Below the pieces are notes generated by a model. That model made no database searches. It had not been told where the DNA came from and saw only the letters and a list, made by a program, of their open reading frames with translations. The position numbers and the translations under genes were made by a program. A stretch of 64,000 nt of DNA from Candidatus Dadabacteria bacterium (GTDB lineage Bacteria; Desulfobacterota_D; UBA1144; Nemesobacterales; CSP1-2), in assembly GCA_963805855.1 (NCBI GenBank), contig CAWDVW010000006.1, forward strand, positions 160,001-224,000, given 5' to 3'. This document shows positions 4,477 to 23,067 of this stretch, piece by piece (within the stretch, counting starts at the first letter, position 1; every line of letters starts with the position of its first letter).

Positions 4477-4561
4477 GCTTTAACTACCAAATCGCCCGCA
4501 GCTTGCGACAGGCTTTCCGCTGTCATGGCAGTGGCACGCACCGCACAGTCATTGCTGCAGA

Positions 4562-4914
4562 TGTTGGATATTTCGTGGACAGTATCTTAGATTTTAAATG
4601 GGCATTCAAAAAATTGCCAAAATCAATTCCGGAAGCGTTAAAAAAAGTGACAATCATTACTGTCATCTCGAAGGAGCATAGTGACTGAGAGAACTAATTA
4701 ATTATAGCAATAGATATCTCGCATTCGCTCGATACGCAAGCGTTTTTTGTTAGCCCTTGTCCTGAGCACAGTCGAAGGGTTGTTTCTTTGTATCAAGACA
4801 AAGAAAATAAAAGATTAAACGATGGATCCCCGATTAAAACATTCGAGGATGACGGATGAGTAAATTCCCAAGAAATTTGTCAGTTTTAGGATTTTGTCCA
4901 CGAAATATCTGACA
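4562..4914. mobile_element. MITE-like element with ~30-bp imperfect terminal inverted repeats
   Basis: Left end TGTTGGATATTTCGTGGACAGTATCTTAGA; right end reverse-complement TGTCAGATATTTCGTGGACAAAATCCTAAA; no ORF; contains REP-like palindromes. Confidence 0.55.
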
Positions 4915-4919
4915 CTTAC

Positions 4920-5080
4920 AATTGCGAGCACTTCGACCCGCCTGTGCTGAGTAAAATTGAAGTACTCAGTGCAGGCTCCGGCGAAGCAATCTGCCACATA
5001 AATACTATAATCGACTGAAATCCGTGCGAGACGCTCTGCCCGTGTTGAAGGAGATTGCTTTGGGACTGCCGAAGTCCCTT
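4920..5080. repeat. REP-like palindromic repeat cluster (TTGCGAG...GAAGCAATCT / GAGATTGCTT family)
   Basis: GCGAAGCAATCT...GAGATTGCTTTGGGACTGCCGAAGTCCC; similar copies at ~57098-57140 and ~62140-62365. Confidence 0.6.
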
Positions 5081-7763: not shown

Positions 7764-8158
7764 GCTGTTTATGTTTTAGACATGCCGGTCACGGTTCTCC
7801 AATCTAATATCCTCTAAGAAGGAAAAGGGGACGCGGCGCTGGACAGCCTCATCTATACCATATAATTTGAGTTTCATTACATTCTAATGTCATTACTGGC
7901 TTAGGGACAATACTAAAAATCTAATCTGAAGAATTCTAGTTGACTTTTAAATAACGTTGGCGTTATAGTTAAACGAGTAATTACAGAGGCTAAGTGGAAA
8001 TGGATGGGGTAGTTTATTTATGTTATCGTTCCCCTTTGATTAAGAGTGCAGTTTCTTTGCACTTAGCCCTTCTTAATATTTTTCGGCCCGATTTGATTTC
8101 TATGATCTCTTTTGTTACTAAAGATTCCTTAATGCGCAAATGATTTGATCGATATATT

Positions 8159-8569
8159 ATGTGCCCGTCAATCTTCTCATATTTTCTCGTCGTTATAATA
8201 CTTATTTCTTCTTGCACTGAAGGTAACAACTCCACAAAAGTAAAGAAGACCCAACGGAAAATTTCATCCGGTCTCCACAGTGTTATAGAAGAGTTAGAAT
8301 TAAAGCCAGAAAAAAAAGAGCAAGTGTTAACTTTTATTGACAAATCGGCTCGGATTAATGAACAGGGAGGAATACAAATTTACATCCAGTTGTACGAGAT
8401 TGATGAGTCAAAACTAGAGGATCTCAAGAAGCACGGTTTAACCATTGACATATATGATAATAAGCAGAAATTGGTTCAGGGTTGGGCACTACCCAATGAT
8501 GTAAAGGCCATCAGTGAACTTCCATTTGTGAAGACAATCGATTTACCCGCATATGGAATAGCAAATTGA
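8159..8569 (+). CDS. lipoprotein resembling a stand-alone subtilase (S8) propeptide domain
   Basis: Lipobox ISSC; IQIYIQL...LVQGW...ELPFVKTIDLPAYG pattern. Confidence 0.55.
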   Translation: MCPSIFSYFLVVIILISSCTEGNNSTKVKKTQRKISSGLHSVIEELELKPEKKEQVLTFIDKSARINEQGGIQIYIQLYEIDESKLEDLKKHGLTIDIYDNKQKLVQGWALPNDVKAISELPFVKTIDLPAYGIAN

Positions 8570-8614
8570 GGGGAGTATGGGGAAATGGTTAAATCCATAA
8601 TTCTAGTTGGAAAA

Positions 8615-9631
8615 GGGGTCAAATCTTTTGTTTATAAGTTTTGTTTATAATATCTTCGACCTTTTTTCTAAACCTTTTGTCCTTCTCCATTTTTACCCGT
8701 ACCCAGTTACAAGCCCATCCTACCACCCCATAACTACTTACTCCAAACATCCCTGCTACCTCATTTAGCGTTATATCACATAACTGCTTTACTAAATGCA
8801 TCCCTACCTTCCTCGCTTCACTATCACTTCCCTTTCTCCACCGAAGCACCTCATCAACTCTTGTCCCATATGCCGTAGCCACATTACTAGCTACCTCATT
8901 CACCGACGGCCTCAACCATACTCTCTCATGCCGAGGATGCTCTCTTCCTATCTTGCCTATCTTCTCCCTTACCCTTTCCCTAAAATCCTCTCCTCCTAAT
9001 ATTGGACTCTGGCGACTACGAGTATAAAACTTTTTTAACTTATCCTCATTCCCCGATAAAACAAACTCCTGAAATTCTCTAACACTACGGAATTCCTCCA
9101 ATAACTCAGTTACATTAAGCCACTGCGGTGCCTTTTTTGGTTTCAAATAGTTCTTATGGCTGCTCCACTTGTATTCGTCAGGTTCTTTAGCCAGTCCAGC
9201 CTCAATAGGATTCAAATGTATGTATCGCACTACAGCCGTCAGATATCTATCACCGTCTATCACTATTGCCTTGAATCGACCCCGAAATATGGGACCGTCT
9301 CGTCCATGCATTCTGTTAAATCTCTGTGTGTATAGACCGTCAACATGGCGCATGACACGGGAAAGATTTGCCTCCGGGGTCCTTAGGCAGACGTGATAAT
9401 GGCTACTCATCAGACAGTATGCAAAGACCTCAATACCCCAACGTTCATGGGTCTCAGCGATAGTCTTCAGAAATTCCTCGAAGTCTTTTGTCTGTATAAA
9501 TATCTTCTGACGTGCGATCCCACGATTCATCACATGGTATATTGCACCCGGAAACTGAATCCGAAGCGGACGAGACATTATAGATAATTATAGGGGAATC
9601 AATTAGACTTCTAAACAAAAGATTTGACCCC
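8615..9631 (-). mobile_element. TIR-bounded Y1 tyrosine-transposase element (RAYT/TIRYT-like)
   Basis: Perfect 20-bp inverted repeats GGGGTCAAATCTTTTGTTTA at 8615-8634 and 9612-9631 enclose the transposase. Confidence 0.8.
8619..9578 (-). CDS. REP-associated-type HUH (Y1) tyrosine transposase with C-terminal HTH
   Basis: YHVMNRG, AYCLMSSHYH (HUH), RYIHLNP (catalytic Tyr), YKWSS. Confidence 0.92.
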   Translation of the reverse strand: MSRPLRIQFPGAIYHVMNRGIARQKIFIQTKDFEEFLKTIAETHERWGIEVFAYCLMSSHYHVCLRTPEANLSRVMRHVDGLYTQRFNRMHGRDGPIFRGRFKAIVIDGDRYLTAVVRYIHLNPIEAGLAKEPDEYKWSSHKNYLKPKKAPQWLNVTELLEEFRSVREFQEFVLSGNEDKLKKFYTRSRQSPILGGEDFRERVREKIGKIGREHPRHERVWLRPSVNEVASNVATAYGTRVDEVLRWRKGSDSEARKVGMHLVKQLCDITLNEVAGMFGVSSYGVVGWACNWVRVKMEKDKRFRKKVEDIINKTYKQKI

Positions 9632-10074
9632 TAATTTATGTCACGCTGGATGGTCGCGACGAGGGCGCCCTCGTCATCCACCAGTTCGACGAGCTTCGAG
9701 GAGCGAATGACCTCACCACCCTGCTCGTGGAGGTACTCGGTCAGAATCGACTCGGTCACCTCCTCTGAGACGCCGATGTTGAACCCGTAACGACTGCCGC
9801 AAATTGAGAGGTCGATCTCTCCGAGTACTCTGCCCCCGGAGTGAAGTCGGGCCATGCGCTGCTTGACGCCCACAGTCAATAGGGGCTCGGGGATGCCCAG
9901 CGACTCAAAGACCTCAAGCGAGCGTGGGTGCACCACTGTCGCCCGGTCCCAGTGCAGCGGCGCTGGATGCGCATCGATGATACGACACTCAATCCCCCGG
10001 CGATGCAGTTCCGCAGCCAGGAGCAGCCCCGTCGGGCCTGCGCCCACCACGAGAACAGTCACATCAGGAACCAT
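9631..10074 (-). pseudogene. 5' fragment of FAD-dependent monooxygenase (FAD_binding_3), truncated next to the TIR
   Basis: VVGAGPTGL Rossmann motif, RATVVHPRSLE; only 147 codons; GC-rich. Confidence 0.85.
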
Positions 10075-10398
10075 GTCGAATCCACTTGAATATCATATTC
10101 GCATTTCAGGTCCAAAGAAGATGCTTCTCCCGTGCCTTTGTAGGTGTCTCGGTTAATTCAGTGATGAAGTCTCCCATTCTTTGTGGCAAACTCATTGGTC
10201 ATTCGAGGTTCATCGAGGAAAACAGCCATCTGCATCTCGCATTTCTTAGCCGAACTCGTAATTATACTGAATAATTCAATATAATCAGCTGTCAGGGTGA
10301 TAGTTAAGGATTCTATTTAATTTAAACCTGTTCGATTCATACACCCCATATGCTCTGACTATATATAAATAATAATCTCAAGTCAAAGAATGCTTCCT

Positions 10399-10435
10399 CC
10401 GTTTAAACCAAGCTTAACAAAAGGGGAGCGGTACA
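10399..10435 (+). repeat. island site R, copy A
   Basis: CCGTTTAAACCAAGCTTAACAAAAGGGGAGCGGTACA. Confidence 0.85.
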
Positions 10436-10440
10436 TGACA

Positions 10441-10469
10441 TTGACCTACATGCACTCATACATTATCAT
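10441..10469 (+). promoter_or_regulatory. sigma70-like promoter directly after site R copy A
   Basis: TTGACC-N17-TATCAT. Confidence 0.55.
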
Positions 10470-10477
10470 GAGCTACT

Positions 10478-10580
10478 ATGGAACAACGTAAACTGAATGA
10501 TGCAGAAATTGCGCATATGCAAGTGAGGCTTCCAATTGAGCTGTATAAAATAATTAGACAGGTCGCCTTTATTGAGACAG
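10478..10580 (+). pseudogene. ribbon-helix-helix (Arc/CopG-like) gene stub
   Basis: MEQRKLNDAEIAHMQVRLPIELYKIIRQVAFIE: beta-strand-RLP-helix pattern, then runs out of frame into the cyclase gene. Confidence 0.45.
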
Positions 10581-10590
10581 GGAGGATCGA

Positions 10591-11430
10591 ATGCCTATCT
10601 ATATGGATCGTCATGACATCAAAGGCACGACTGCAACTGAAGTTGCAGAGGCCCATCAGAAAGATCTTGAAATCCAAGACAAGTACGGTTGCAAGGCCCT
10701 GACATATTGGTTTGATGAAGCAAATGGTACGACTTTTTGTTTAATAGAGGCTCCGAGAAAACAAGCTGTAGAGCAGATGCACCATGAAGCTCATGGACAT
10801 GTTCCCAGCGAAATCATCGAAGTCAACCCTGGGGCCGTGAAGGCGTTCCTTGGAAGAATCGAGGACCCGCCAATGCCAACCAAGTCGCCTGCGCCTACCA
10901 GTAACGTACCAATAATAGACTCTGCCTTTCGCACTATCATGTTCACGGATATGGAGGGTTCCACGACTATAACAACACGCCTCGGGGACTCTAAAGCCAT
11001 GGAACTCCTTCGTACTCATGATGCCATTATTCGCGATGTTATAAAGACTCATGATGGCAACGAAGTTAAACACACAGGTGACGGTTTCATGGTTTCCTTT
11101 TGCTCTGTTTCTCGCGCTGTAGAGTGTGCTATGTCTATTCAAAGGGCTGTTGCTTCTTATAATAATAAGGAGCCCATCGCTACTATCCACCTTCGCATTG
11201 GCATCACTGCTGGTGAGCCCGTCACGGGAGGCCAGGATCTATTTGGCTCCACCGTCCAACTCGCTGCTCGCATCTGTGACCATGCTAAACCTGAACAGAT
11301 TTTGGTCACACGTGTAATACAAGATCTGTGCATCGGCAAGAAATTGCCATTTTCCGACCAGGGTGAGATACCGCTACGTGGTTTCGATGAGCCTGTGCGG
11401 CTGTATGAGGTTAGATGGCAGGCGGCATAG
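10591..11430 (+). CDS. DUF4242 N-terminal domain + class III adenylate/guanylate cyclase
   Basis: MPIYMDRH...YWFDEANGTTFCL; IMFTDMEGST, VKHTGDG, LRIGI, GSTVQLAAR. Confidence 0.9.
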   Translation: MPIYMDRHDIKGTTATEVAEAHQKDLEIQDKYGCKALTYWFDEANGTTFCLIEAPRKQAVEQMHHEAHGHVPSEIIEVNPGAVKAFLGRIEDPPMPTKSPAPTSNVPIIDSAFRTIMFTDMEGSTTITTRLGDSKAMELLRTHDAIIRDVIKTHDGNEVKHTGDGFMVSFCSVSRAVECAMSIQRAVASYNNKEPIATIHLRIGITAGEPVTGGQDLFGSTVQLAARICDHAKPEQILVTRVIQDLCIGKKLPFSDQGEIPLRGFDEPVRLYEVRWQAA

Positions 11431-11520
11431 TATGGAATTATATAAATTTCACAAATGTAATCCACAAATAAACTTAAATGTGCTCTGCTTAATTGTAGCC
11501 GAGACAAATTCAAGAACACT

Positions 11521-11611
11521 TACCCCGAAAGTTTTTTAGCAAATACTGTGTGTCAAAGAAACTATTACGCCCCCTGGCAGGGGGGGGTAGGGTCAGCCGG
11601 TAGGGTATGGG
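11521..11611. repeat. G-rich ~90-bp island motif P, copy 1
   Basis: TACCCCGAAAGTTTTTTAGCAAATACTGTGTGTCAAAGAAACTATTACGCCCCCTGGCAGGGGGGGGTAGGGTCAGCCGGTAGGGTATGGG; near-identical to 19136-19225. Confidence 0.9.
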
Positions 11612-11720
11612 GGTAGCCTGCCCCCCTATAATAGGTCCATAGTTTAAGTTAGATTTTTGATAGAGAACCCTATATGTCGGGGATATTCTGAATAGCTAGG
11701 AAGCACTACATTCTCTATGG

Positions 11721-11759
11721 TTCCAACTTAATCCGAACTTAATAAAGGGAAGCCGTACA
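11721..11759 (+). repeat. island site R, copy B (degenerate)
   Basis: TTCCAACTTAATCCGAACTTAATAAAGGGAAGCCGTACA. Confidence 0.65.
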
Positions 11760-11822
11760 CTGATTTCTCACTATCTTTGGCTCTAGGAGTCAATTTTGGC
11801 TTTTTCGTCCTTGTGAAATTAC

Positions 11823-12242
11823 CTACCGAACCCTTACTACAGGAACAGCCCCTAGAACTTGGACATATTTTGTTTGGTAACTCCCTGCTCCCATCCCAAT
11901 AGGCATTCCACCTTTTAGATAGGTGCCCTTGCTGTGAGGAGGAATTGTGATGGGAAGTACCGCAGTGGTACTGCTTACCTGTTGGCCAGCGTTGTTATAT
12001 GAGGTGGAGTAGTAGTTGAGTTTTATTTCAATGTCCTTATACGCTATGTCCGCTGTATTCTCAATCGTGACATTACTAATCATAGCTACTCCACCCCAGG
12101 CAATAAAAAAAGACCAGTCAGTAACTTTAATGTACCACTCAGGATGTTGTTTCATTGAAATCGTAGGTTCCATATCTTGAGCCTTGGCAAATGGAGAAAG
12201 TAGGACCAGTAGGATAAACAGTTTTGTCGTTATATGGTTCAT
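11823..12242 (-). CDS. secreted hypothetical protein, paralog of 1499..1910
   Basis: Signal peptide from ATG 12242; shared QHPEWYIK.xDWSF.xAWGGVA.I.NV.IENT...NYYST. Confidence 0.8.
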   Translation of the reverse strand: MNHITTKLFILLVLLSPFAKAQDMEPTISMKQHPEWYIKVTDWSFFIAWGGVAMISNVTIENTADIAYKDIEIKLNYYSTSYNNAGQQVSSTTAVLPITIPPHSKGTYLKGGMPIGMGAGSYQTKYVQVLGAVPVVRVR

Positions 12243-12308
12243 GTTTGTATTCTGAGAGCTAGAAGTATTAGTTACCACTATTATACACTAGGCTAATCTC
12301 CGTCTTTA

Positions 12309-12348
12309 TTCCAGTTTAAACCGAGCTTGACAAAAGGGGAGCGGTACA
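12309..12348 (+). repeat. island site R, copy C
   Basis: TTCCAGTTTAAACCGAGCTTGACAAAAGGGGAGCGGTACA. Confidence 0.9.
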
Positions 12349-12384
12349 AACTACCCTTTGTACCAATCCATATAGAGACTTTGC

Positions 12385-12418
12385 AACAACCACAATTCCA
12401 CCTGTCAGAGGGTGTGAG
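12385..12418. repeat. 34-bp island motif Q, copy 1
   Basis: AACAACCACAATTCCACCTGTCAGAGGGTGTGAG; 31/34 identical to 19291-19324. Confidence 0.85.
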
Positions 12419-12511
12419 ATTCAGTAGCAATCTGTCTATTCCGTAAAGACAATAAAGAATGTCTGCCGGCATTCCACCCGGCTGTTGTGCGACGTTCTCT
12501 ACAGGTAGGAT

Positions 12512-12615
12512 GAGGCAGACTGTTTTCTCATATTAACTCTTCCTCTGTTTTTTTTAATTCAACGGTAAGTGAGCCTATTATTTGGGTTAGCTCTTGATTC
12601 TTTTTACGAAGGCGA
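12512..12615 (-). repeat. 104-bp inverted copy of the IS3 orfA/orfB junction (16089-16192)
   Basis: Direct base-by-base reverse-complement match. Confidence 0.92.
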
Positions 12616-12715
12616 ATGGCGGATAAGGGAAGTGGTGCGATGTGCGATGATCTGGAGGGAAAAAGAAGGAGGCTGGATCATCAGATAAGCAGGCTTTTTA
12701 GGGCTGAGGGCAAAG

Positions 12716-13584
12716 TGCCTGCCAAATCACGACCCCTTCGTGCTTGCTCACAGGATAGCGGTTCTCGACCATCTGGCTAAAGGGAGATTCTATTGGGGTG
12801 TCGGGTCCGGTACCTTTATAGGTGACTTTGAGGCATTCGGGATTGACCCAAAAACAGGAGAGCAAAGGGAATTAACCAGTGACTCACTGGATTTTATCCT
12901 TAATTTGTGGAAAAACCCGAAGCCCGGTTTTTATGGAAACAACAGATGGAAATTTCGGGTACCAGAACCGCAAAATGACGTAGGTCTTGGCGTAGATATA
13001 AGTCCGTATCAGAGACCGCATCCCCCAATAGCCGTGGCGGGGATAACCGAAAGGTCTGAGACGCTGAGAATCGCCGGAGAACAGGGGATGGATACCCATG
13101 AGCATTAATTTCATACCAAAAAATGTGTTGATGACGCATTGGTCATCGGTCGAAGAAGGAGCCCGAATGTCAGGAAAAAACCCGGATCGCTCGAAATGGC
13201 GGATTGCAAGGGATGTCTATGTCGCCGAGACTACCGAGGACGCCCGTCGGGAGGTAAAGCAGGGAACACTGTCTAGGGATTTTACAGACTACTTTTTCAA
13301 ACTAGTCCCAAGGATTAGGGGCAATTTAAAACACCTTTAAAGTCGATAAATCTATGCCCGATTCGGATGTGACTGCTGACTACATGATCGATAATCTTTG
13401 GTTAGTCGGAAACCCTGATGATGTTGTCGACCAAATTAAAGAAGTTTATCACCATGTTGGCGGCTTTGGGGTGCTGCTTGTGATGGGACATGAATGGAAA
13501 CCCAAAGACAACTGGGTCAGATGCATGAAGCTATTGGTTGAAGAGGTACTGCCGCGCTTGAAAAATTTAGGGAATAACGCTTAA
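12716..13584 (+). pseudogene. LLM-class flavin-dependent monooxygenase, 5'-truncated, two frameshifts (~13085, ~13330)
   Basis: CLPNHDPFVLAHRIAVLDHLAKGRFYWGVG, PYQRPHPPIAVA, LVGNPDDV, EEVLPRL. Confidence 0.85.
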
Positions 13585-13681
13585 GGTAGGCTTCGTCGCC
13601 TCCATACTAATCCTCCCAGATCAATGGTGAGCTTCCCTTACGGTGGCAGACGGTACGACGCTCGGATTCCACCTGCATCGA

Positions 13682-14444
13682 TTAATCCGCATGCCTAATC
13701 ATGAACCCCTCCATCAGCGTCTGCAGCATGACGGGTGTCTCCTCCATCGGGTAGTGGCCCGATTCGATCTAGCAAACTCTATGTTGTCATGCCATTTCGT
13801 AAAAGTTGCGCGCTGCGCCTCGATCCGCTCGTTGGGGAGGTCGTATTTTCCGCAGATTACCAGAAATGGCAGAGTGACACAGCCCGCTTCAGGTGAAAAA
13901 TCGTGTAGTGTAAACATATCTAGGTAGCCTCGCGCCGCTGCAGCGGTTCGGGTCTGGCGCGCGCGGCGCATCTTAAACTTCTTCCACTGTGTCGAAAGTC
14001 GGTTACCCATGGCAAAGTCAGGAGTTCATGGAATTTCTCATCATCGGTGATGGAGTCGATGGCTTTCTGCCGCAACTCTTCGGGCATTTGAAGCCGGCTG
14101 CCGAGACCGCAGCGATAGCAACCACACTCTTGAGCGCTCTGGCACGTCGATTGCCAACCGCTCGACGACCATGCCGGTCATTGAGAAGCCAACCAAATGA
14201 ACACGATTCCAACTAAGGTGATCGATCAGCTCGAGCGTATCAGCGGCAGCCTCGGTTTCGTTGTACTCACCCGTGAGGTGGATGGAACGGCCGTACCCGC
14301 GTACGTCGGTCAGCACATAGGTGAATCGATCTACATCGAGATACTGCATAACCGGCTCCCAACTCGTGCAGTCACCCATCCAATCGTTGTAGACAACAAC
14401 CTTCTCGGTCCATGCCCGAGCAATCTGTGTCCCAAGAGTGCCAA
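13682..14444 (-). pseudogene. alpha/beta hydrolase with several frameshifts
   Basis: DVRGYGRS, LVGFSMTG, PFLVICGKYD and HYPMEETP lie in different frames; GC-rich. Confidence 0.8.
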
Positions 14445-14979
14445 TGGTCACGACTCCCGTCACAATGCTGCAACGCTGAACTATAACGCCACCCGCGGAT
14501 GCCCAGCATCAAATCGCGGGCCCAACATCAATCTCAAATATTTATTCTACTCGTTCCAAATTTAAAACGCACATTACACTGCGCGTCAAAGTGATTGACA
14601 ATTTTTGTTACCAAAGATACCAATGATAACTAAGCGATTAATTCATTCTCCCAATGAACTAGGAGAATGGAACCTGATTACCAAAATGTGTCGTTACAGG
14701 TCTAGGAAATTCTTCTTTTGCGGATCAAAAATTAAGATTCGGTCTATTTTGTACAGGGTTAAATTAAGTTTTTATATGATCTATACACTCAGAACCAAGA
14801 TGGCCTTCTCACAGTTCGTCTTCTCGTGGTGCTGCGCGTCCCCCCCTAGACCAAAAACGCCCAATATCCCAAGACTGATTTCCCTCGCCATTGTTCGACC
14901 GATTTGTCTGGTGACACTGCTGTTCATGATGGTTTCAAGAGTTCCTTTATCAGCTGATGACCTTGATCTTCCAACCTTC

Positions 14980-15264
14980 ATTTTCCATATCGCCACGAAG
15001 TTGAAAAAATACTTAATAATCATTTGGTAAAAAAGACAAGTTTTTCCAATGAATTGTATCTCTGCGAAAAGTGTTACAGACTTTATGCGAGATTCTACGT
15101 AAGGATAGATTACGATGAAGATAAGACTTATACGACAGTGTACGTATGTAGCAAGTGTGAAGAGTTACTTAAAAGTATAAGGGAAGAAGAGATACCCTTA
15201 ATACCCTGTGCTAAATGTGGGGAAGAAAGCTCTAGAATACCGCCTGAGTTTGCTATGGGATTAA
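14980..15264 (+). pseudogene. Zn-ribbon protein, 5'-truncated, frameshift in G-run ~15219
   Basis: CEKC, CSKC, CAKC; corrected end CAKCGKKALEYRLSLLWD*. Confidence 0.55.
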
Positions 15265-15385
15265 ACTCCGATTTATGGAACGTATGGTACCAGCCTGTTG
15301 TTTGTCCTGCGTCAACTTTTATTAAGGTTACTTAGAAATGAACAGGGTAAGTCTAATTGATTTTTGAGAGTGGAGAGGTGTTAAT

Positions 15386-15763
15386 GTGAGCAAAACTGAA
15401 ACGCCAATGATTAGAAGGTACTGGGAGATGGTTGGTGGTACATTGATTGAAGAATTTCCTGTTGTTAAGGGAACAAGGTACCAAGGAGCGAGGAGAATAG
15501 ATGCGATAATAATTAAAAATGGTGAGAGGAGAATAGCAAAATCAAATGAAGTTTCTTTAAAAGGTAAGGATATTATTTGTGTTCAAGCTAAAAGTCATAG
15601 ACTTGGTATGTATTTAATGGGACAGACGTTTTTCTCTGAGCAGCTATTAAGGAGATTTGAGCCGAGTAGTGTCTCATGCGTTGCTTTATGTGCCAAAGAC
15701 GATGCAGTCCTAAGACCATTAATAGAACAGTATCCACAGATGAAAGTTGTTGTAATTGATTAG
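15386..15763 (+). CDS. small PD-(D/E)XK restriction-endonuclease-fold protein
   Basis: E...RRIDAII...VQAK...MGQ motif; GGAGAGG RBS. Confidence 0.6.
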   Translation: MSKTETPMIRRYWEMVGGTLIEEFPVVKGTRYQGARRIDAIIIKNGERRIAKSNEVSLKGKDIICVQAKSHRLGMYLMGQTFFSEQLLRRFEPSSVSCVALCAKDDAVLRPLIEQYPQMKVVVID

Positions 15764-15900
15764 AGTTGAAATCTCAGAATATCATAACGAGGATGAGTTA
15801 TTAGCTATGTTAGCACCATGGCTACGATATACTGCTCCCCATTAAGGAGTGAGTGTGATTAAGTGAGAAAATATCTGTAATAGACAATGGGGGAGCAACC

Positions 15901-16176
15901 ATGAAACGAAGAAGATGGGATTCTAAAGCCAAGACAAAAATAGTACTTGAAGGTCTGTCCGGTAGACCAGTATCAGACATTTGCAACGACTTCGGAATAC
16001 ATCAGAACCAATACTACACCTGGCGGGACAAGTTTTTATCAGAAGCCCACAGAGCCTTTGAATCCAAAAAAGACGGTGCACAAGTAAATCGCCTTCGTAA
16101 AAAGAATCAAGAGCTAACCCAAATAATAGGCTCACTTACCGTTGAATTAAAAAAAACAGAGGAAGAGTTAATATGA
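15901..16176 (+). CDS. IS3-family transposase OrfA (HTH_Tnp_1)
   Basis: KTKIVLEGLSGRPVSDICNDFGIHQNQYYTWRDKF. Confidence 0.9.
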   Translation: MKRRRWDSKAKTKIVLEGLSGRPVSDICNDFGIHQNQYYTWRDKFLSEAHRAFESKKDGAQVNRLRKKNQELTQIIGSLTVELKKTEEELI

Positions 16177-16943
16177 GAAAACAGTCTGCCTCTGTATCCT
16201 TTAGTAACGAATACTTACTTACACGAATAAAGGATATAAAAGCGGAACATCCTTTCTGAGGTTATAGAAGAGTATGGGCATATCTAAGATATATAGATGG
16301 ACTAGTAGTTAACAAGAAGCGTGTATACAGGCTTATGAGAGAGAATAACCTTACCGTTAAGCCTAACACAAGACTAATAGCAAAGAGGATATCAGGAAGA
16401 CCAAAGCCAAGACCTGATAGACCCAGACAGTGGTGGGGAGTAGACATGACAAAGGTCATGACTGACAGTGGCCGGGTATATGTAGTAATAGTACTGGACT
16501 GGTATACGAAGAAGATAGTAGGTTACTACAGTGGAACAAGAGCCACAACCATAGAATGGCTGGAAGCTTTAGAGAAAGGACTAAACCGAGAGTTCCCCGG
16601 AGGGGTGAGAGGACATGAATTAAAGCTCATGAGCGATAATGGGAGTCAGCCTACTTCACTTAGTTTTATGAAAGCATGTTCCAATCTGGAAGTAGAGCAA
16701 GCATTTACCAGTTACAATAACCCGAAGGGTAATGCGGATACGGAGAGAATGATAAGAACGATGAAAGAGGAGCTATTTTGGCTAAGAGAGTGGAAGAGTG
16801 AAAGAGAGCTTAGTCATGAGCTGGATAAATGGATTAAGTATTACAACACAAGCTACCTTCATTCAGCACTTGGATACCGAACACCGATTCAGTTAGAAGA
16901 GGAATATTACAGGAATATCACTTCACATGAAAATGCTGCTTGA
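16173..16943 (+). pseudogene. IS3-family transposase OrfB (rve) with premature TGA at 16257-16259
   Basis: HPF*GYRRVWAYL (Trp codon replaced by stop); WGVDMT, SDNGSQP, NADTER. Confidence 0.88.
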
Positions 16944-17055
16944 GTAATTTACTTCATAGTAATTACAACTTTTCCTTAGAGCCTTGGCTATAGTATAATA
17001 AGGGTGTAATAGATTTCATTTTAAGCCCTGTATTTAGATAGTCAGGGGTAATTAT

Positions 17056-17541
17056 ATGGCTCAACCAACTGACATAGCTCAGAATCATATTGTAAAAGAC
17101 CTGATGCTTTATCCTGTTTCCCCCTCAATACTTTATTATGTTGAACTGCCGGGAACCAAGTGCAAGATTATCCAAAACAATGGTAACAAACTCTACTGCG
17201 CAAAATATCCTATGCTTAAAGGACTGTTCAGAAAGGACATGGATGAAACTAAGAAATACGGAAAAATAATCTGCTATAAAGTGGCAGAGAAACTGGACAA
17301 CTTCGGCTTTTTCACCTCCGATGAGCGCCCTGAATATGGAATATCGTACGGTATATCCGAAAAAGAATTCGCGTATATGTTTGAGCTAATCGGGGCTAAA
17401 GAAGGCGAGCACTTAGTTGCAATGTTCGCATATCCGGAAAGAGAGGCACTTGAGTCAAAAATCTTTTTTGAAAAACTGCTTAGAAAGACTTACTTCTCCT
17501 ATATTCTAGATAAAAAAATTTTCAATATGTTTTTTGGTTAA
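17056..17541 (+). CDS. hypothetical protein resembling the GAD/insertion domain of archaeal GatE
   Basis: CAKYPMLKGLF...KKYGKII...GFFTSDERPEYGISYGISEKE...IGAKEGEHLVAMFA resembles the recalled GatE motif GIFHxDELPxYGISxEE. Confidence 0.5.
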   Translation: MAQPTDIAQNHIVKDLMLYPVSPSILYYVELPGTKCKIIQNNGNKLYCAKYPMLKGLFRKDMDETKKYGKIICYKVAEKLDNFGFFTSDERPEYGISYGISEKEFAYMFELIGAKEGEHLVAMFAYPEREALESKIFFEKLLRKTYFSYILDKKIFNMFFG

Positions 17542-17637
17542 GTAAACTCTGTTTTCATCCCCGTAGGGCTCCCTCGGCTCTTGCTCATAAAGCAGCTAAT
17601 AGTTACAAGGTTAGGTTGGGAATGAACGAATACTATA

Positions 17638-17677
17638 ATCCAACTTAGACCGAGCTTGACAAAAGGGGTGCGGTACA
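17638..17677 (+). repeat. island site R, copy D
   Basis: ATCCAACTTAGACCGAGCTTGACAAAAGGGGTGCGGTACA. Confidence 0.9.
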
Positions 17678-17889
17678 ACGACCATTTAGACTTAATACAT
17701 TATATGACGATTGGGAAAACGCACCATCTTACTCGGGATGACCAATATGGATAACAAAATCGTGCTTGAATGGAGAGGTGCCTTCGACTGGTTTGGCTCA
17801 TCCGAGAACGTCACGGCCAGCCCTGACACTATGAACCCCGCTGCTGGGAACCTCTCTCTGTATACACGGAGTTCCTTAAGGGAATGAGC

Positions 17890-17937
17890 TCGACACAGTG
17901 GAAGAAGTTTAAGATGCGCCGCGCGCGCCAGACCCGA
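17890..17937. repeat. 48-bp inverted copy of 13948-13995
   Basis: TCGACACAGTGGAAGAAGTTTAAGATGCGCCGCGCGCGCCAGACCCGA is an exact reverse complement. Confidence 0.92.
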
Positions 17938-17999
17938 GAACCTATGCTGAGAGTAACCTCGCTTCTCTATCCTGTCTTCTTATTGTTATTGGTTCAGGC

Positions 18000-18238
18000 G
18001 GTTTTTCCACAAATTAAGGATAAAATCCAGTGAGTCACTGGTTAATTCCCTTTGCTCTCCTGTTTTTGGGTCAATCCCGAATGCCTCAAAGTCACCTATA
18101 AAGGTACCGGACCGACACCCCAATAGAATCTCCCTTTAGCCAGATGGTCGAGAACCGCTATCCTGTGGGCAAGCCCGAAGGGGTCGTGATTTGGCAGGCA
18201 CTTTGCCCTCAGCCCTAAAAAGCCTGCTTATCTGATGA
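18000..18238. repeat. ~239-bp inverted copy of 12678-12917
   Basis: Reverse-complement match with 2 substitutions and one 1-bp indel. Confidence 0.92.
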
Positions 18239-18648
18239 GTGGTTTAATTCCAAATGGATGGCGGGTGTCTTTCCTCAGCAGGCATGGTCCGTCGCGGGTG
18301 ATGATAATCGCCCGGAAACAAGCCAGGCCAAGACCCAGGGGCACAAGCTCGCACAAGCCATCATCCCCCCCGTAGAGAAAGCCTTGACCCTGAAGTTCTG
18401 GGCTGCCCTCTTCTCCCTCAGGATTACATCAGCCACAAGCATCTCTCCCGATAGTATGTATACGTCCAGCGCACCCCTCATCGGGCACACGCCCAGATGG
18501 AAAACACAGGCTATGTTAATACTTCACCTCGACGAAGGAGTAACAATAACACCAAACTTTGCGCTATAAGACCTATAATCGGGAATTATAGGCATGCTCG
18601 CAGTCTAATTAATAGTTAGGCACAGAAAAGCGCAGGAACTGTCATCCA

Positions 18649-18975
18649 TTGGTAACAAGCTCTGCATACTTTACCACGAACGACGGGGTGAGGCTGCATT
18701 ACCTCGAAGCAGGTCACGGGAGACCACTCGTGCTGCTGCCGGGGTGGACACAGCCGGCCGAGACGTATATCTCGCGGTTCAAATCAGACCCTTACTCCAT
18801 TCTTATTGCTGAAATGCTCTTGAGGAAAACTACAGCCTTACAGGTTGAAAGAATATTTCGCTTTACTTCGGGAAAGGGTGACGCTAAAAAATTAGCCAGG
18901 GAAGGAATAAAACAGGGGTTTACCCATTTTGTTTCTGTCGGGGGGGACGGTACTGCACATGAAGTGGTGAATTGA
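18649..18975 (+). pseudogene. in-frame chimera of alpha/beta hydrolase, HhH-GPD glycosylase (MutY/MIG-like) and diacylglycerol-kinase fragments
   Basis: DGVRLHYLEAGHGRPLVLLPGW | DPYSILIAEMLLRKTTALQV | FTSGKGDAKKLAREG...VSVGGDGTAHEVVN. Confidence 0.8.
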
Positions 18976-19058
18976 AGGCGACAAAGCCAAACTTGATGAC
19001 CTGGTTTCAACGCTCGAGCCAAGCATTGGGTAGGAATCGGAAAACGAAATACTGGATA

Positions 19059-19099
19059 TTGGCCTGGCTTGTTTCCGGGCGATTATCATCACCCGCGAC
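19059..19099. repeat. 41-bp inverted copy of 18291-18331
   Basis: TTGGCCTGGCTTGTTTCCGGGCGATTATCATCACCCGCGAC is an exact reverse complement. Confidence 0.92.
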
Positions 19100-19135
19100 C
19101 GTAGAGGCGGCTTCTAAGTGAATTGATGCATAACC

Positions 19136-19225
19136 TACCCCGAAATTTTTAGCAAATACTGAGTGTCAAAGAAGCTATTACGCACCCTGCCAGGGGGGGG
19201 GTAGGGTCAGCCCGTAGGGTATGGG
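19136..19225. repeat. G-rich island motif P, copy 2
   Basis: Direct repeat of 11521-11611 with a handful of differences. Confidence 0.9.
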
Positions 19226-19290
19226 TACGTAGGCCAGAGCTTTCATTTTCTTCTCTATAACCCCACAGACAAAAGAAAGCAATAAGGTAT

Positions 19291-19324
19291 AACAACCATG
19301 ATTTCACCTGTCAGAGGGTGTGAG
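19291..19324. repeat. island motif Q, copy 2
   Basis: AACAACCATGATTTCACCTGTCAGAGGGTGTGAG. Confidence 0.85.
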
Positions 19325-19471
19325 GTGTAGAAACCCACTGTTAGCGGGCATACGCTTTTATGACCAAGAGCCTAGGGAGCCGTGTGACTCCCTCCGCCTT
19401 GGGTTATACGTTTCTCGCTGGTGCAGGTGGGTGCATGCTGGTTTGGGCTACCACTCAGACGACCTGGATTA

Positions 19472-19990
19472 TCACGGCGTGAGCGTAGGTGAAGGCTCGC
19501 AACTGTATGATGCTTGTGCAGGGTCGATTTGGACGATGTTCTTCTGAGCCAGTTCGGTTGTGTACTGCGCTAGTCGGCATAGACACGTCTCAAATTGGGC
19601 TTCAGAAGTGCCGTTTGATTCGGGTTGGACGTCGCAGAACGGTGGTGCATTCCCGAGCGTGAAGGCTACGGAGCACCCTAGGCTGCTGCCATCGCGTATC
19701 GCGGTATTGGCGAACCTGTTCCCGTCGCCCACTGGCTGGGATAATGCACAACCATCAGATGGTAGCGAGTCGCATTGGGATGATGTGCAGTTGTCGAAGT
19801 CGATATTCTCGCAACTGCAAAATACGCCTCCCCAGCAATCTGTGGTCATGGGTACCTTGAAGTAGTCGCATGGGCACTCTGCTACTGCAGCGAGCTCGGC
19901 ACATGGGTCGCCGCCACCGCCATCACCATCACATCCAATGCCTACAGCTAGCAGAAATAGTAACGCTAAGAATATCTTATGAGGCTTCAT
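19472..19990 (-). CDS. Cys-rich lipoprotein
   Basis: Lipobox AVGIGC, Gly-rich linker, many Cys; G-rich RBS. Confidence 0.75.
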   Translation of the reverse strand: MKPHKIFLALLFLLAVGIGCDGDGGGGDPCAELAAVAECPCDYFKVPMTTDCWGGVFCSCENIDFDNCTSSQCDSLPSDGCALSQPVGDGNRFANTAIRDGSSLGCSVAFTLGNAPPFCDVQPESNGTSEAQFETCLCRLAQYTTELAQKNIVQIDPAQASYSCEPSPTLTP

Positions 19991-20086
19991 AATATCCCCC
20001 CCCCTTACGATTTTATTTGAGTAATACGCCTGACAGCACTTGGCAACTTTATCATATGTTTGATGCGAAATGCAAGGATATTATGA

Positions 20087-20120
20087 TTCCAACTTAAACC
20101 GCCGTTGACAAAAGGGGAGC
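20087..20120 (+). repeat. island site R, copy E (3'-truncated, fused to integrase remnant)
   Basis: TTCCAACTTAAACCGCCGTTGACAAAAGGGGAGC. Confidence 0.8.
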
Positions 20121-20127
20121 AGGATAG

Positions 20128-20418
20128 GCAATAAAAGAAGCCGGTGTTAAATGCACCTTCCACAGTTTAAGACATACATTCGCAAGCAACCTGGTTACAC
20201 GCTTGAAAGAGGATATGGTAACGGTAATGGAGTTAACCGGACATAAAGATATTAGGATGCTAAAACGATATAGCCATACAAAAAAAGAGCTAAAAAAAGA
20301 GGCTATGTCAACATTGGGGAATCATCTAAAATCCCTCGATTTGGATACATCCATAGACACCTCCTCGGACACCTCTACAGGTGACAAGATTTTCACCAAA
20401 TTATCTGTTATATCTTAA
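20128..20418 (+). pseudogene. C-terminal fragment of phage-type tyrosine integrase
   Basis: AIKEAGVKCTFHSLRHTFASNLV...LTGHKDIRMLKRYSH contains HxxRH, GH and the catalytic Y; N-terminal region absent. Confidence 0.9.
20342..20375 (+). repeat. three tandem 12-bp-period repeats, likely integrase arm-type sites
   Basis: TGGATACATC-CA-TAGACACCTC-CT-CGGACACCTC, 70 bp from the tRNA 3' end. Confidence 0.55.
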
Positions 20419-20444
20419 CTTCCTGTTATCAATTGGAAATATGG

Positions 20445-20522
20445 TGGCGTCCCCGAGGGGATTTGAACCCCTGTTACCGCCTTGAAAGGGCGATGTCCTA
20501 GGCCAGGCTAGACGACGGGGAC
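20445..20522 (-). tRNA. tRNA-Glu(TTC)
   Basis: GTCCCCG...CT-TTC-AA...GGTTCAAATCCCCTCGGGGACGCCA cloverleaf with encoded CCA. Confidence 0.97.
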
Positions 20523-20527
20523 GGGAG

Positions 20528-20601
20528 TGAGCCGTGCAGGATTCGAACCTGCGACCCACTGCTTAAAAGGCAGTTGCTCTACCTAGCTGAGCTAACGGCT
20601 C
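20528..20601 (-). tRNA. tRNA-Lys(TTT)
   Basis: GAGCCGTTAGCTCAG...ACTGC-CTTTTAA-GCAGT...GGTTCGAATCCTGCACGGCTCA; CCA not encoded. Confidence 0.97.
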
Positions 20602-20616
20602 ACAGGTAAATGTCAA

Positions 20617-20644
20617 AATATATCACTTTTGAACCCTTTGTCAA
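20617..20644 (-). promoter_or_regulatory. sigma70 promoter of the tRNA operon
   Basis: TTGACA-N16-TATATT. Confidence 0.65.
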
Positions 20645-20718
20645 AAAGTTGCGTTTTCTCTTTTCTCGTTATAATTGTACGGTGTTAATGTTCATTCAAT
20701 TGAATTTGAAGAAATAAT

Positions 20719-21877
20719 ATGGTCCTGGATTTAGATCGGAATCAGTTTAAGAACTTTTCATTGATTATCACATCCAGTTTTCTGTTTTTCTGTAATTTTT
20801 CTTCCTTTTTTCTTTTGCCTCTATTTATAAAAAGCCTGGGAGGGAATGAAAGAAACATAGGCTTTGTGATGGGTTCATTTGGAATCACGTCCATAGGGTC
20901 TATCCCTATCGTTTCCTACTTATTAGACAAATATGGAAGGCGTAAATTCCTTGTGCTCGGGAGTTTAGTTATGAGTTTGTCTTCATTTGGCTTCATTTTC
21001 ATAAAAGATCTAAGCCCTCTTCTATATGTATTCAGATTATTTCAGGGGATTGGTTTTGCTTTCTTTTTCACTTCTGCGGCTACCGCCGCGGTAGATGTAA
21101 TACCTGAATCGAGAAGGGGCCAGGGTCTCGGAATATTTGGGGCATTTCTTATTTTAACCTATGCCATAGGTCCGAGTATTGGTGAATTGGTCATTGATAA
21201 ATTTGGATTTAGTCTGTTTTTTATAATCACATCATCATTCAGCCTAGCTGCTACCTTCTCTGTTTTTTTTATAAGGGATGTTGCATTTAAACGATCGACA
21301 GACACAAATGCACTCCGTTTTTTTTACCTCGCATTCTCCAAGAGATACTTTGTATTACTACTTACCAATATAATCGCAGCAAGCGGCTTTGGCTCTGTAC
21401 TATACTTCATATCGGTATACCTAAAATCCAAGGGGTTGAATGTCTCTTATTTCTTCGTTACCTATACCATTACCGTTGCAGCTTTGAGGATTTTAGGCGG
21501 TAGAATCTCTGACGTCTTTGGAAGGAAGGGTGTAGCATCTCCGAGCCTGTTTCTATTTTCACTGGCGATAGCATCGGTTGCCTTAATAAATTCGGTATAT
21601 ATGATTGTTCTGGTCTCAGTATTATTCAGTGTCGGATATGGAATGTTATATCCAACGCTCAGCGCCCTTGTCATTGATAAGTCATGGGCCGGACGAAAGG
21701 GGAAAGGCAATGGGCGCTTATAATGCGAGCTTCAGCATGGGTGTTAATTTTCCAACGTTTGCCTTTGGTATAATTGCTAAAAATTGGGGTTTTGTTGATA
21801 TGTACCTTATATCGGCATTCATTGTTTTCGTAGGGTTTTTAATATTCACCTTTTTTGAAGCCAAGCGGTACTCTTGA
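20719..21877 (+). CDS. MFS transporter (one apparent frameshift at ~21686)
   Basis: DKYGRRK and SDVFGRK motif A; the C-terminus GPDERGKAMGAYNA is in the shifted frame. Confidence 0.85.
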
Positions 21878-21911
21878 AAAATAATTTGTTTTATTTACTC
21901 TTGCGGGTGCA

Positions 21912-22679
21912 ATGAAGATAAAAACTGGCGATTGCGTGCTTCTATTATCCTCGGATAACAAAACCTTCCTGGTTGATATAAGGGATGGGAAGGTTTTCAG
22001 CACCCATTTGGGGACCCTTAAACTTGGTGATGCGATTGGTAAGGGTTATGGAGAGGTTATACAAACACAATTGGGTAAACGGTTTTTCCTGCTCGATCCG
22101 ACCCTGGAAGACAGGATGATGAAGGCAAGGAGGCTTACTCAGATAATCTATCCCAAGGATGCCGCTTTAATACTTCTGAAGACCGGGATTCTTTCGGGAT
22201 ACCGGGTTATTGAGTGTGGTGTAGGCTCGGGTGTGCTAACCATGGCTTTGTCTAATGCTGTCTCTCCGGATGGGAGAATATATTCATACGATAGGAGAGA
22301 AGATTTTTTGGATAATGCAAAAAGAAATGTCACAGAGGCAGGATTTGGGGAATTGGTCGAATTTAAATTGAGGGATGTTAACGACGGCTTTGATGAAACT
22401 GATGTTGACGTTGTTATACTGGATTTACCGTCTCCATGGGAGGGCGTTCCCTCTGCTGCTAGGTCGATCAGGGGTGGTGGAAGGATAGCTAGTTTATCAC
22501 CCACGTTCAACCAGGTTGAAAAGACGGTTGAAAGCCTGACCAACGAAGGGTTTATCAACCTAGAGAGTCTTGAGATTCTGATACGCAAATTCCTGGTTCG
22601 TTCTGGGAAGACCAGACCTTTTGAAAGGATGGTAAGCCATACGGGGTTTTTAACATTTGGGAGGAAAGCTATTGTGTAG
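21912..22679 (+). CDS. trmI: tRNA (adenine-58-N1)-methyltransferase
   Basis: TQIIYPKD, ECGVGSG, ILDLPSPW, MVSHTGFL. Confidence 0.92.
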   Translation: MKIKTGDCVLLLSSDNKTFLVDIRDGKVFSTHLGTLKLGDAIGKGYGEVIQTQLGKRFFLLDPTLEDRMMKARRLTQIIYPKDAALILLKTGILSGYRVIECGVGSGVLTMALSNAVSPDGRIYSYDRREDFLDNAKRNVTEAGFGELVEFKLRDVNDGFDETDVDVVILDLPSPWEGVPSAARSIRGGGRIASLSPTFNQVEKTVESLTNEGFINLESLEILIRKFLVRSGKTRPFERMVSHTGFLTFGRKAIV

Positions 22680-22804
22680 CAAATACCGGCTTATTTAATA
22701 TTTAACTTTTGGGCACTACTGTAAATCTTAGATAATTCGTGGATAAGATTCTTACAATTTGATGAGACTTTCTGAGAATCAAAAGGGCTTGAACGGCATT
22801 CCAA

Positions 22805-22848
22805 GTCCTGACGAAAACCAGGATCTATTCAGTATCAAGACAAAGAAG
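22805..22848. repeat. intergenic repeat; inverted copy at ~27023-27065, partial copy at ~4790
   Basis: GTCCTGACGAAAA(C/T)CAGGATCTATTCAGTATCAAGACAAAGAA. Confidence 0.75.
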
Positions 22849-23067
22849 TTGGAAAGAAAAGTAAGATGATTGACGAAAATACTTTTAAAGATTCTTCCTT
22901 GAAATATCTGGCTTTTAGAACTACGACATATCTTAGGTCTAATATGGAGCTATCCCTACAAAATTTTTTGATTAGATACCGCAGTAATAAAGGGTATAAA
23001 AATTTTTTAATCAAGTTATAATGTACATTCTGATTTTCAAATCTTTCGAAATTGTGAGGTAATATTG

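Follow-up and report, generated by a model that had tools for sequence, protein, structure and literature searches.

Same-orientation repeats in a tRNA-Glu island of a Candidatus Dadabacteria genome are very probably the right ends of an IS3-family insertion sequence and of its non-autonomous derivatives

Insertion sequences (IS) of the IS3 family, such as IS911, IS2 and IS150, transpose by a copy-out/paste-in route; they encode an orfA product with an HTH_Tnp_1 domain and an orfB product with an rve/DDE domain, and their right end closes with CA-3' and contains an outward-facing TTGACA. Such an outward -35 element in the right inverted repeat (IRR) is a known trait of the family, in which it serves as part of a junction promoter. 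Passengers free of any transposase gene are carried between IS-type ends by mobile insertion cassettes (MICs), of which MIC231 of the Bacillus cereus group is an example, and by transporter IS. Direct repeats with cargo between them are also found in the pseudo-compound arrays and translocatable units of the IS6-family element IS26 (passages of PMC7986276 and PMC8477213), in which the whole IS including its transposase gene is repeated through cointegration, and in integrons, whose cassettes are single genes between same-orientation repeats and vary in content from strain to strain. Here we describe a repeat, R, that occurs five times in a stretch of 64,000 nucleotides (the window; part of contig C6) from the genome of a Candidatus Dadabacteria bacterium (G000). 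Our in silico analysis indicates that R very probably forms the right end both of an IS3-family IS and of the derivatives of this IS, MITEs (miniature inverted-repeat transposable elements) and gene cassettes, which have accumulated in a decaying island next to a tRNA-Glu gene. Coordinates are positions in the window unless a contig or genome is named.

The five copies of R are all on the plus strand. The initial annotation of this DNA had described them as same-strand copies that have diverged from each other, and both statements were borne out: a repeat search (families D1/D2) placed them at 10391-10436, 11716-11749, 12304-12349, 17633-17678 and 20082-20127, and a profile search of positions 8001-21000 returned five plus-strand matches with E-values from 2e-13 to 7e-8. 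The consensus given at the time matches two of the five copies at up to three mismatches (zero expected in 100 shuffles). The 3' boundary of R is sharp at ..GCAGTACA, with exact tips at 10435, 11759, 12348 and 17677, and the DNA past this boundary differs copy by copy; in the fifth copy, R5, the tip is degenerate and reads ..GCAGGATA. A perfect TTGACA faces outward 16 nt from the tip. The internal tandem repeat of 10-11 bp that had been proposed for R did not hold up, the two halves being identical at about 5 of 10 positions by eye and the first half not being conserved in the IS right end.

The only minus-strand profile match with an E-value below 1 (15829-15843, E 0.018) is the left end of an IS that resides within the array. 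This damaged IS3-family copy (15828-16943, plus strand) starts at 15828 with the left end TATACTGCTCCCCATTAAGGAG and contains orfA (15901-16176, plus strand; HTH_Tnp_1, E 1.2e-11) and an N-terminally short orfB (16335-16943, plus strand; rve, E 5e-13), the product of which ends in ...YYRNITSHENAA*. The top NCBIfam match of either reading frame is 'IS3 family transposase'; orfB scored 132.9 bits against NF033516 (IS3 family), under the full-length cut-off of 160, because the open reading frame (ORF) is partial. In alignment A1, all five window copies of R matched, over about 45 nt, the 3' termini of IS copies taken from four genomes (C5:819702-820817 of the window genome, L016, L128 and L090). 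The homologous segment includes the last orfB codons, the stop codon TGA being situated inside GCTGCTTGAC and hence inside the IRR. Since the homology to the IS 3' ends extends over these final codons and the stop, R is the IRR of an IS3-family IS, and the earlier view of R as an unclassified, new recombination site had to be given up. R likewise stands directly 3' of the C-terminus of an rve transposase in the public contigs L010/L016, L090 and L011/L071/L108. The left end of the IS has the tip TATACTGCTCCCC, and 12 of 13 tip bases agree with R when the latter is reverse-complemented; this left end has TA where 5'-TG is expected, and the right end ...GCAGTACA-3' fits the CA-3' rule.

A second IS copy of the window genome, C5:819702-820817, is 81% identical to the first and possesses both ends (right end GCTGCTTGATAATAAAGTAAGCAGTACA) and a split orfB; its orfA and orfB overlap by 4 nt (L130 4974-4977). 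A complete IS with both ends is present in G001:C61 of a sister genome. In the window, the right end of the IS breaks off after ..GCTGCTTGA, the homology to R ending right past the stop codon (16943), and an ORF of 161 aa (17056-17541, plus strand) follows between the IS and R4. Because the IS has lost its own right end and is followed by this ORF and then by R4, the segment 15828-17677 looks like an IS carrying a passenger, that is, a transporter-IS-like unit; similar layouts of IS, gene and R were seen at the C5 locus of the window genome and in G001:C61. The window genome holds 27 copies of R and two of the IS, both of them damaged, and since both look defective the array is probably a fossil in this genome. 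In G007, another genome of the order, 11 orfB matches to a 202-aa query were found, the longest an open frame of 278 aa and most others covering just the last ~40 codons.

The junctions at the R tips point in the same direction. Across 139 distinct junctions, the information content was at most 0.07 bit at each of 16 flank positions, and neither GTTRRRY nor any other position is conserved after the junction; given such random flanks, the tip is to be regarded as an end made by a transposase and not as a crossover point in a conserved att or attC core. The flank past the tip is AT-rich (GC 0.35 versus 0.42 further out). Targeting of hairpins at the insertion flank was considered and rejected, as there is less structure in the flank than in control windows. 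Folded as single-stranded DNA, neither R nor its long form does better than shuffled sequences (z 0.39 to 0.86).

Inverted IS-type ends were found around transposase-free DNA in one element of the window and in units of related genomes. R2 (11721-11759, plus strand) is the right end of a MITE of about 147 nt ('type b'; 11613-11759, plus strand), the left end of which, GTAGCCTGCCCCCCTATAATAGG.., resembles that of the IS; the MITE left-end pattern at C6 171618 has no mismatch. R3 (12309-12348, plus strand) is the right end of a cassette that carries the gene for a secreted protein of 151 aa (11823-12278, minus strand; no Pfam match), which had been noted as a paralog. The left inverted repeat of this cassette is missing in the window; in the sister genome (G001:C166) a 605-bp cassette with an R end on either side, in inverted orientation, carries the paralog as its passenger, and in G007:C702 a gene for a Cys-rich lipoprotein of 308 aa is placed between inverted long R ends. 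R4 (17638-17677, plus strand) is a right end as well; its upstream context (17563-17637) is of 'type d'. R1 (10396-10435, plus strand) is a solo IS3-type right end whose upstream part resembles the 'type e' context of G007, and R5 (20087-20126, plus strand) is a right end joined to a truncated integrase gene; like R3, these two have no left end in the window.

For the relatives, we searched 3 kb to each side of 117 distinct R copies from other genomes for the left-end 13-mer on the same strand, allowing up to two mismatches. It was found 19 times upstream and 11 times downstream; by rough estimate, far fewer matches would be expected by chance. From the upstream matches, 14 units running from a left inverted repeat (IRL) to R (356-2690 nt) were picked by hand. 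About 10 of these 14 IRL...R units carry ORFs other than a transposase gene, the products including a secreted protein (402 aa), a lipoprotein (458 aa), a methyltransferase-like protein (270 aa) and small Cys-rich secreted proteins; three retain a remnant of orfA, and one retains orfB plus a 420-aa passenger. Such passenger units, which in the relatives span 0.4-2.7 kb, are MICs or transporter IS, and the proposal of the initial annotation that R bounds mobile units with single, unrelated cargo genes is thus supported by the units of related genomes. When 89 R copies were grouped by the DNA upstream of R, families of 13, 8, 7, 4, 3, 3, 2, 2 and 2 members and 45 singletons were obtained. The families are MITE-like, about 90-330 nt long and spread over many contigs, and the DNA past their tips is unrelated. 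The largest family has 13 members; in the 11 of these that were aligned, a terminator hairpin of canonical form lies about 20 nt 5' of R. One upstream family is made up of a rho-independent terminator and, behind it, R. In L016, L027 and L063 (family 'a'), R is located behind the terminator of genes whose products end in ...IPTLSEWGLIAMAGVLGIVGFMVIRRRK, a C-terminal tail that is sorting-signal-like and may resemble IPTL-CTERM.

The initial annotation had offered, as its second thought, non-autonomous mini-elements that keep their cis signals and swap their interiors. For R this comes close to the truth; the two other repeats named as signals, P and Q, do not qualify as general ones. P occurs only twice in the genome, both times in the window (11518-11611 and 19133-19225). 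Q occurs at four places in the genome, two of them in the window (12385-12435 and 19291-19341), and at none of the fetched foreign loci; by its coordinates, the copy on C5 lies just 3' of a gene for a secreted protein on the opposite strand. P and Q are probably parts of paralogous gene flanks. We also considered the P-Q pair at 19133-19341 as an empty site corresponding to 11518-12435, but the correspondence is not clean.

The homology between R and the IS end, the IS copy within the array, the passenger-bearing IRL...R units of the relatives and the random flanks at the tips would be accommodated by the following course of events. An IS3-family IS of about 1.1 kb ends in R, that is, in its IRR (...GCAGTACA-3') together with the last orfB codons, and the same R closes MITEs of about 90-330 nt and cassettes in which passengers replace or accompany the transposase gene. 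The transposase of the IS may mobilize these derivatives in trans by a copy-out/paste-in route. Elements of the family would have piled up in the decaying island downstream of tRNA-Glu, where later deletions and rearrangements would have removed most left ends, truncated the integrase gene and left gene fragments behind. The strong conservation of R and the weak conservation of the left end would reflect an asymmetry of donor and recipient ends as in IS2 and IS911. In IS2, the left end is described as an exclusive recipient without donor function and the right end as bound sequence-specifically (passages of PMC3299598), an inequality matched here by the conserved IRR and the weaker IRL; for IS911, the sequence of the recipient tip is described as unimportant for circle formation (in part of PMC7780238). 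The clustering of R in direct orientation may result from insertion targeted near resident right ends.

In comparison with the known members of the IS3 family, the element is short, its left tip reads TATAC instead of TGTAC, no target duplications were seen, and the non-autonomous derivatives far outnumber the copies that bear a transposase gene. The likeness to MICs and transporter IS lies in the transposase-free passengers between IS-type ends; unlike in MICs, the parent belongs to the IS3 family, the passengers are diverse (secreted Cys-rich proteins, lipoproteins and enzymes), and most copies are without a clear left end and clustered head-to-tail.

Several observations weigh against accumulation of ordinary IS, MITE and cassette insertions. 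The first concerns orientation: all 12 pairs of neighbouring R copies within 10 kb in the window genome have the same orientation (hand count), and among 176 copies in 118 sequences, 40 neighbouring pairs have the same and 8 the opposite orientation, counts that are inflated by kin and overlapping loci. Five of the eight opposite pairs have their tips outward and are cassette-like. This bias towards direct orientation is not predicted by ordinary IS or MITE insertion and is unexplained. The second concerns the left ends. Of 42 R copies with at least 3 kb of upstream flank, just six have a recognizable left-end tip in that range (11 of the 42 have another R of the same orientation there); inverted partners within 275 nt upstream are barely above controls (mean local score 17.1 versus 16.3 downstream and 15.9 in shuffled sequences); and within the window a plausible left end can be named for R2 (that of the MITE) and R4 (that of the IS) only. 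By eye, no target duplication of 3-4 bp was found in the 14 picked units, G001:C166, G007:C702 or the IS copies, a weak negative given that the exact termini are uncertain by 1-2 nt. Polarity is a further point: the gene upstream of R is codirectional with it in 23 and opposite in 4 of 39 young copies from other genomes, but in the window genome 7 are codirectional and 13 opposite, of 25. No clean pair of filled and empty sites was found between sister genomes; the flanks of tRNA-Arg and tRNA-Asn simply differ between them, and the locus at 535 kb of C2 matches other repeats only. No transposition event was observed. In three loci from different genomes (L067, L096 and L094), the orfB of a resident IS is interrupted within its last ~150 nt by a joint to the R tip; the joints are staggered and R has the orientation of the right end of that IS, a hint that insertion is directed to the vicinity of resident right ends.

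An alternative, which we regard as unlikely, would account for both the 40:8 preference for direct orientation and the missing left ends: the right end alone would be a sufficient cis site. An IS3-type transposase would pair R ends in direct orientation, or R with a lax pseudo-left end, and a unit running from tip to tip would be excised as a circle with one R and re-inserted beside a resident R, building direct arrays of single genes with an IS end of 45 nt as sole cis site. Insertion of IS911 targeted to inverted repeats is reportedly the topic of published work. Besides the 40 direct pairs among the 48, direct orientation in 11 of 12 multi-copy contigs of G007 (hand tally), the absence of a left-end tip within 3 kb upstream of 36 of the 42 R copies and the R tips inside resident orfB 3' ends in L067, L096 and L094 agree with it; local spread is suggested by the rare variant GCGGTACA, which is shared by three of the five copies in the window. 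For IS911, a truncated transposase, its N-terminal part, is described as pairing two IRR fragments in parallel (in part of PMC2909936), and IS26 has a targeted conservative mode (passages of PMC8477213). The outcome would be integron-like or similar to a translocatable unit of IS26, a likeness in outcome only, as IS26 arrays repeat the whole IS, whereas here a 45-nt end from the IS3 family is repeated and the mechanism is putative.

Other data speak against a sufficient right end. Among 147 junctions, a downstream flank anchored at the tip is shared, with unrelated DNA upstream, by just one pair (L063/L078), which has the look of a single locus whose R has decayed. The cyclase segment of the window (10436-11463, plus strand; 1028 bp) begins one base past the R1 tip, but its 99.1% identical copy on C5 begins 250 nt past another R tip. 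Known integration in the IS3 family requires both ends abutted, and left-end tips are not enriched directly after R tips: a candidate head-to-tail junction was rejected, as the left end abuts the R tip in 1 of 101 copies at up to four mismatches, equal to controls. Public sequencing runs (the best of which contains 0.31 of the sampled words) yielded, from four runs, contigs with joints at or near R boundaries; their short sides measure 22-42 nt, they are ambiguous, and we attribute them to related R elements of other organisms that cross-mapped, which gives no verdict on excision.

Selection for R as a portable regulatory module, be it an outward -35 element or a terminator combined with a protein-binding site, is very unlikely. 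The perfect TTGACA near the tip, the terminator hairpins in the largest upstream family and the retention of exact 22-mers across families of the order would fit such a module. However, the variable flank has, by eye, no -10-like hexamer at 17 +/- 1 nt and, across the junctions, no conserved position, so that R was rejected as a promoter, and the neighbouring genes in the window genome are mainly antisense to R.

That tyrosine-integrase islets are stacked in tandem at tRNA-Glu, with R as a backbone or att-like signal, corresponds to the satellite-like accretion of the initial annotation and is in our judgement extremely unlikely. Clusters of R do adjoin tRNA genes with integrase genes or fragments (at tRNA-linked loci the tip is directed toward the tRNA gene in 7 of 8), the content beside tRNA-Glu, tRNA-Arg and tRNA-Asn varies among sister genomes, and tRNA-derived attR repeats, found elsewhere in the genome for tRNA-Leu, tRNA-Met and tRNA-Thr islands, bound the R-containing islands of tRNA-Leu (+8.2 kb) and tRNA-Met (+13.1 kb). 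R is nevertheless unlike the 3' end of tRNA-Glu, no repeat of at least 14 nt derived from tRNA-Glu was detected within 40 kb, and clusters of R also lie far from tRNA genes (C2 342-343 kb, C2 535-536 kb and contig C4). The homology of R to an IS end and the random flanks of its tips argue against such a signal as well, and the joint between R5 and the integrase gene cuts the latter in mid-domain with loss of the R5 tip, which looks like a deletion and not like a recombination product. An integron-like array in which R is an attC-type site for an integron integrase has virtually no likelihood, even though single genes lie between same-orientation repeats and an RYYYAAC-like ATCCAAC is present in some R copies (by eye), since the top match to the integron integrase profile TIGR02249 in the window genome scored 88.3 bits against a cut-off of 265 (control genomes likewise gave sub-threshold matches only), R forms no attC-like hairpin, no GTTRRRY core follows the junction and the cargo has no fixed polarity in the window genome.

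Copies of R also occur outside the array. The initial annotation had not found R elsewhere in the window, and this holds, as the other matches on C6 lie outside positions 160001-224000 of the contig; it does not hold for the genome. The profile (E<0.01) detects 27 copies of R at 10 or more loci in this genome of 3.1 Mb, in same-orientation groups on five contigs, a dispersal that the initial annotation had itself named as speaking against its reading. Replication-strand bias was rejected, since the leading and the lagging strand carry 13 and 14 copies, respectively. The core 23-mer of R is distributed patchily over the order, with occurrences in 11 of 41 genomes (G000 included) and 72 copies in G007. 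Among public contigs, a 22-mer of R recurs without mismatch in 109 stretches, mainly from metagenome-assembled genomes (MAGs) titled Candidatus Dadabacteria, Thermodesulfobacteriota or Desulfobacterota, and the exact 22-nt core also occurs in MAG contigs with other titles, namely Nitrospirota, Nitrospiraceae, Scalinduaceae, Omnitrophota and Hyphomicrobiales (L011, L017, L061, L066, L071, L080, L090 and L108). An identical core across labels of several phyla reflects either horizontal spread of the IS or binning errors. No intact IS was found in MAGs of other phyla, there being no left end within the fetched loci, the contigs of which end at the IS. In L017, the R core is a solo end that adjoins an mraZ-rsmH-ftsL cluster. 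L063 and L078 share a conserved hydrophobic ORF of 24 codons (MRNLLVGIVIGIILGLIIAIYFIK) with a GGAGG ribosome-binding site, 11 nt past the tip of an R variant; the DNA 5' of R is unrelated in the two genomes.

The array occupies a strain-variable island (8611-20433), the flanks of which are conserved in G001 and G002, both sister genomes, as far as about 8610 on the left and from 20434 onwards on the right; next to its own tRNA-Glu gene, G001 has unrelated DNA without R. The content beside tRNA-Glu varies between strains, a point that the initial annotation had proposed to check. On the right, the island is bounded by two minus-strand genes, for tRNA-Glu(TTC) (20445-20522) and tRNA-Lys(TTT) (20527-20601). 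A scan of positions 9000-22000 against Rfam (E up to 1) returned, besides these two tRNAs, just two chance matches. Convergent with tRNA-Glu, a 96-aa C-terminal fragment of a tyrosine integrase (20128-20418, plus strand; positions 119-170 of 172 of the Phage_integrase profile, E 4.5e-10) starts right after R5, and the fusion of the last R copy to a truncated integrase described in the initial annotation is therefore correct. Upstream of R5, a gene for a Cys-rich, lipoprotein-like product of 172 aa (19472-19990, minus strand) was found; in the relatives, R units often carry genes for Cys-rich secreted proteins. The ORF of the cyclase segment (10591-11430) combines SCO4226-like and Guanylate_cyc domains, and its copy on C5 adjoins a tRNA-Ala gene and an integrase fragment. 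This locus (C5:815949-818271; L130 450-2772) is a simpler version of the window layout, in the order tRNA-Ala, integrase fragment, small Zn-ribbon-like ORF, cyclase gene and an R pointing toward the tRNA gene.

The interior of the island contains a truncated FAD-binding gene, a luciferase-like monooxygenase gene in three pieces, and fragments of alpha/beta hydrolase and diacylglycerol kinase genes, in addition to the damaged IS and the integrase stump. Inverted pairs with 98-100% identity connect 12512-12615 with 16089-16192, 12678-12917 with 18000-18238, and 13948-13995 with 17890-17937; one of them includes a piece of the IS orfA, and in a contig of run X1 positions 12512 and 16193 are connected, on opposite strands. 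The pairs point either to a nested inversion/duplication of recent date or to a chimeric assembly. A protein of 319 aa (8619-9578, minus strand), encoded at the left margin of the island, has an N-terminal Y1 transposase domain like that of RAYT (transposases associated with repetitive extragenic palindromes, REP), fused to a C-terminal helix-turn-helix of DnaA; it scored 75.9 bits against REP_Tyr_transpos of NCBIfam (cut-off 80), and the genome has 10 Y1_Tnp matches. Despite this gene, R was rejected as a hairpin end of the REP/RAYT or IS200/IS605 type, as it has neither a hairpin nor a replication-strand bias. Short non-coding repeats at 4548-4920 and 22801-22930 of the window have dozens of 80-97% identical copies in G001 and G002. 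ARAGORN calls two transfer-messenger RNA genes in the window genome (C5 c[1042821-1043204] and C7 c[669041-669397]) with different tags, AAEKRHRWRSRSLALAA and AEPINALAA; one of the two may be spurious or borne by a mobile element.

With R recognized as an IS3-family end, the locus is no longer a candidate for a new recombination system. A brief literature check, confined to leading matches and not extending to ISfinder, returned no published account of these elements. The data also reveal an extensive family, not described before, of MITEs and passenger-carrying cassettes derived from IS3-type elements in uncultured genomes of the Dadabacteria/Thermodesulfobacteriota type. If the right end alone were indeed sufficient, the array would represent a transposase-driven, integron-like system of gene capture. 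Its right ends, arranged head-to-tail and without left ends, bear on how asymmetric copy-out/paste-in transposases choose their ends and targets, and the cassettes of the family move genes for small secreted, Cys-rich and lipoprotein products, as well as for enzymes.

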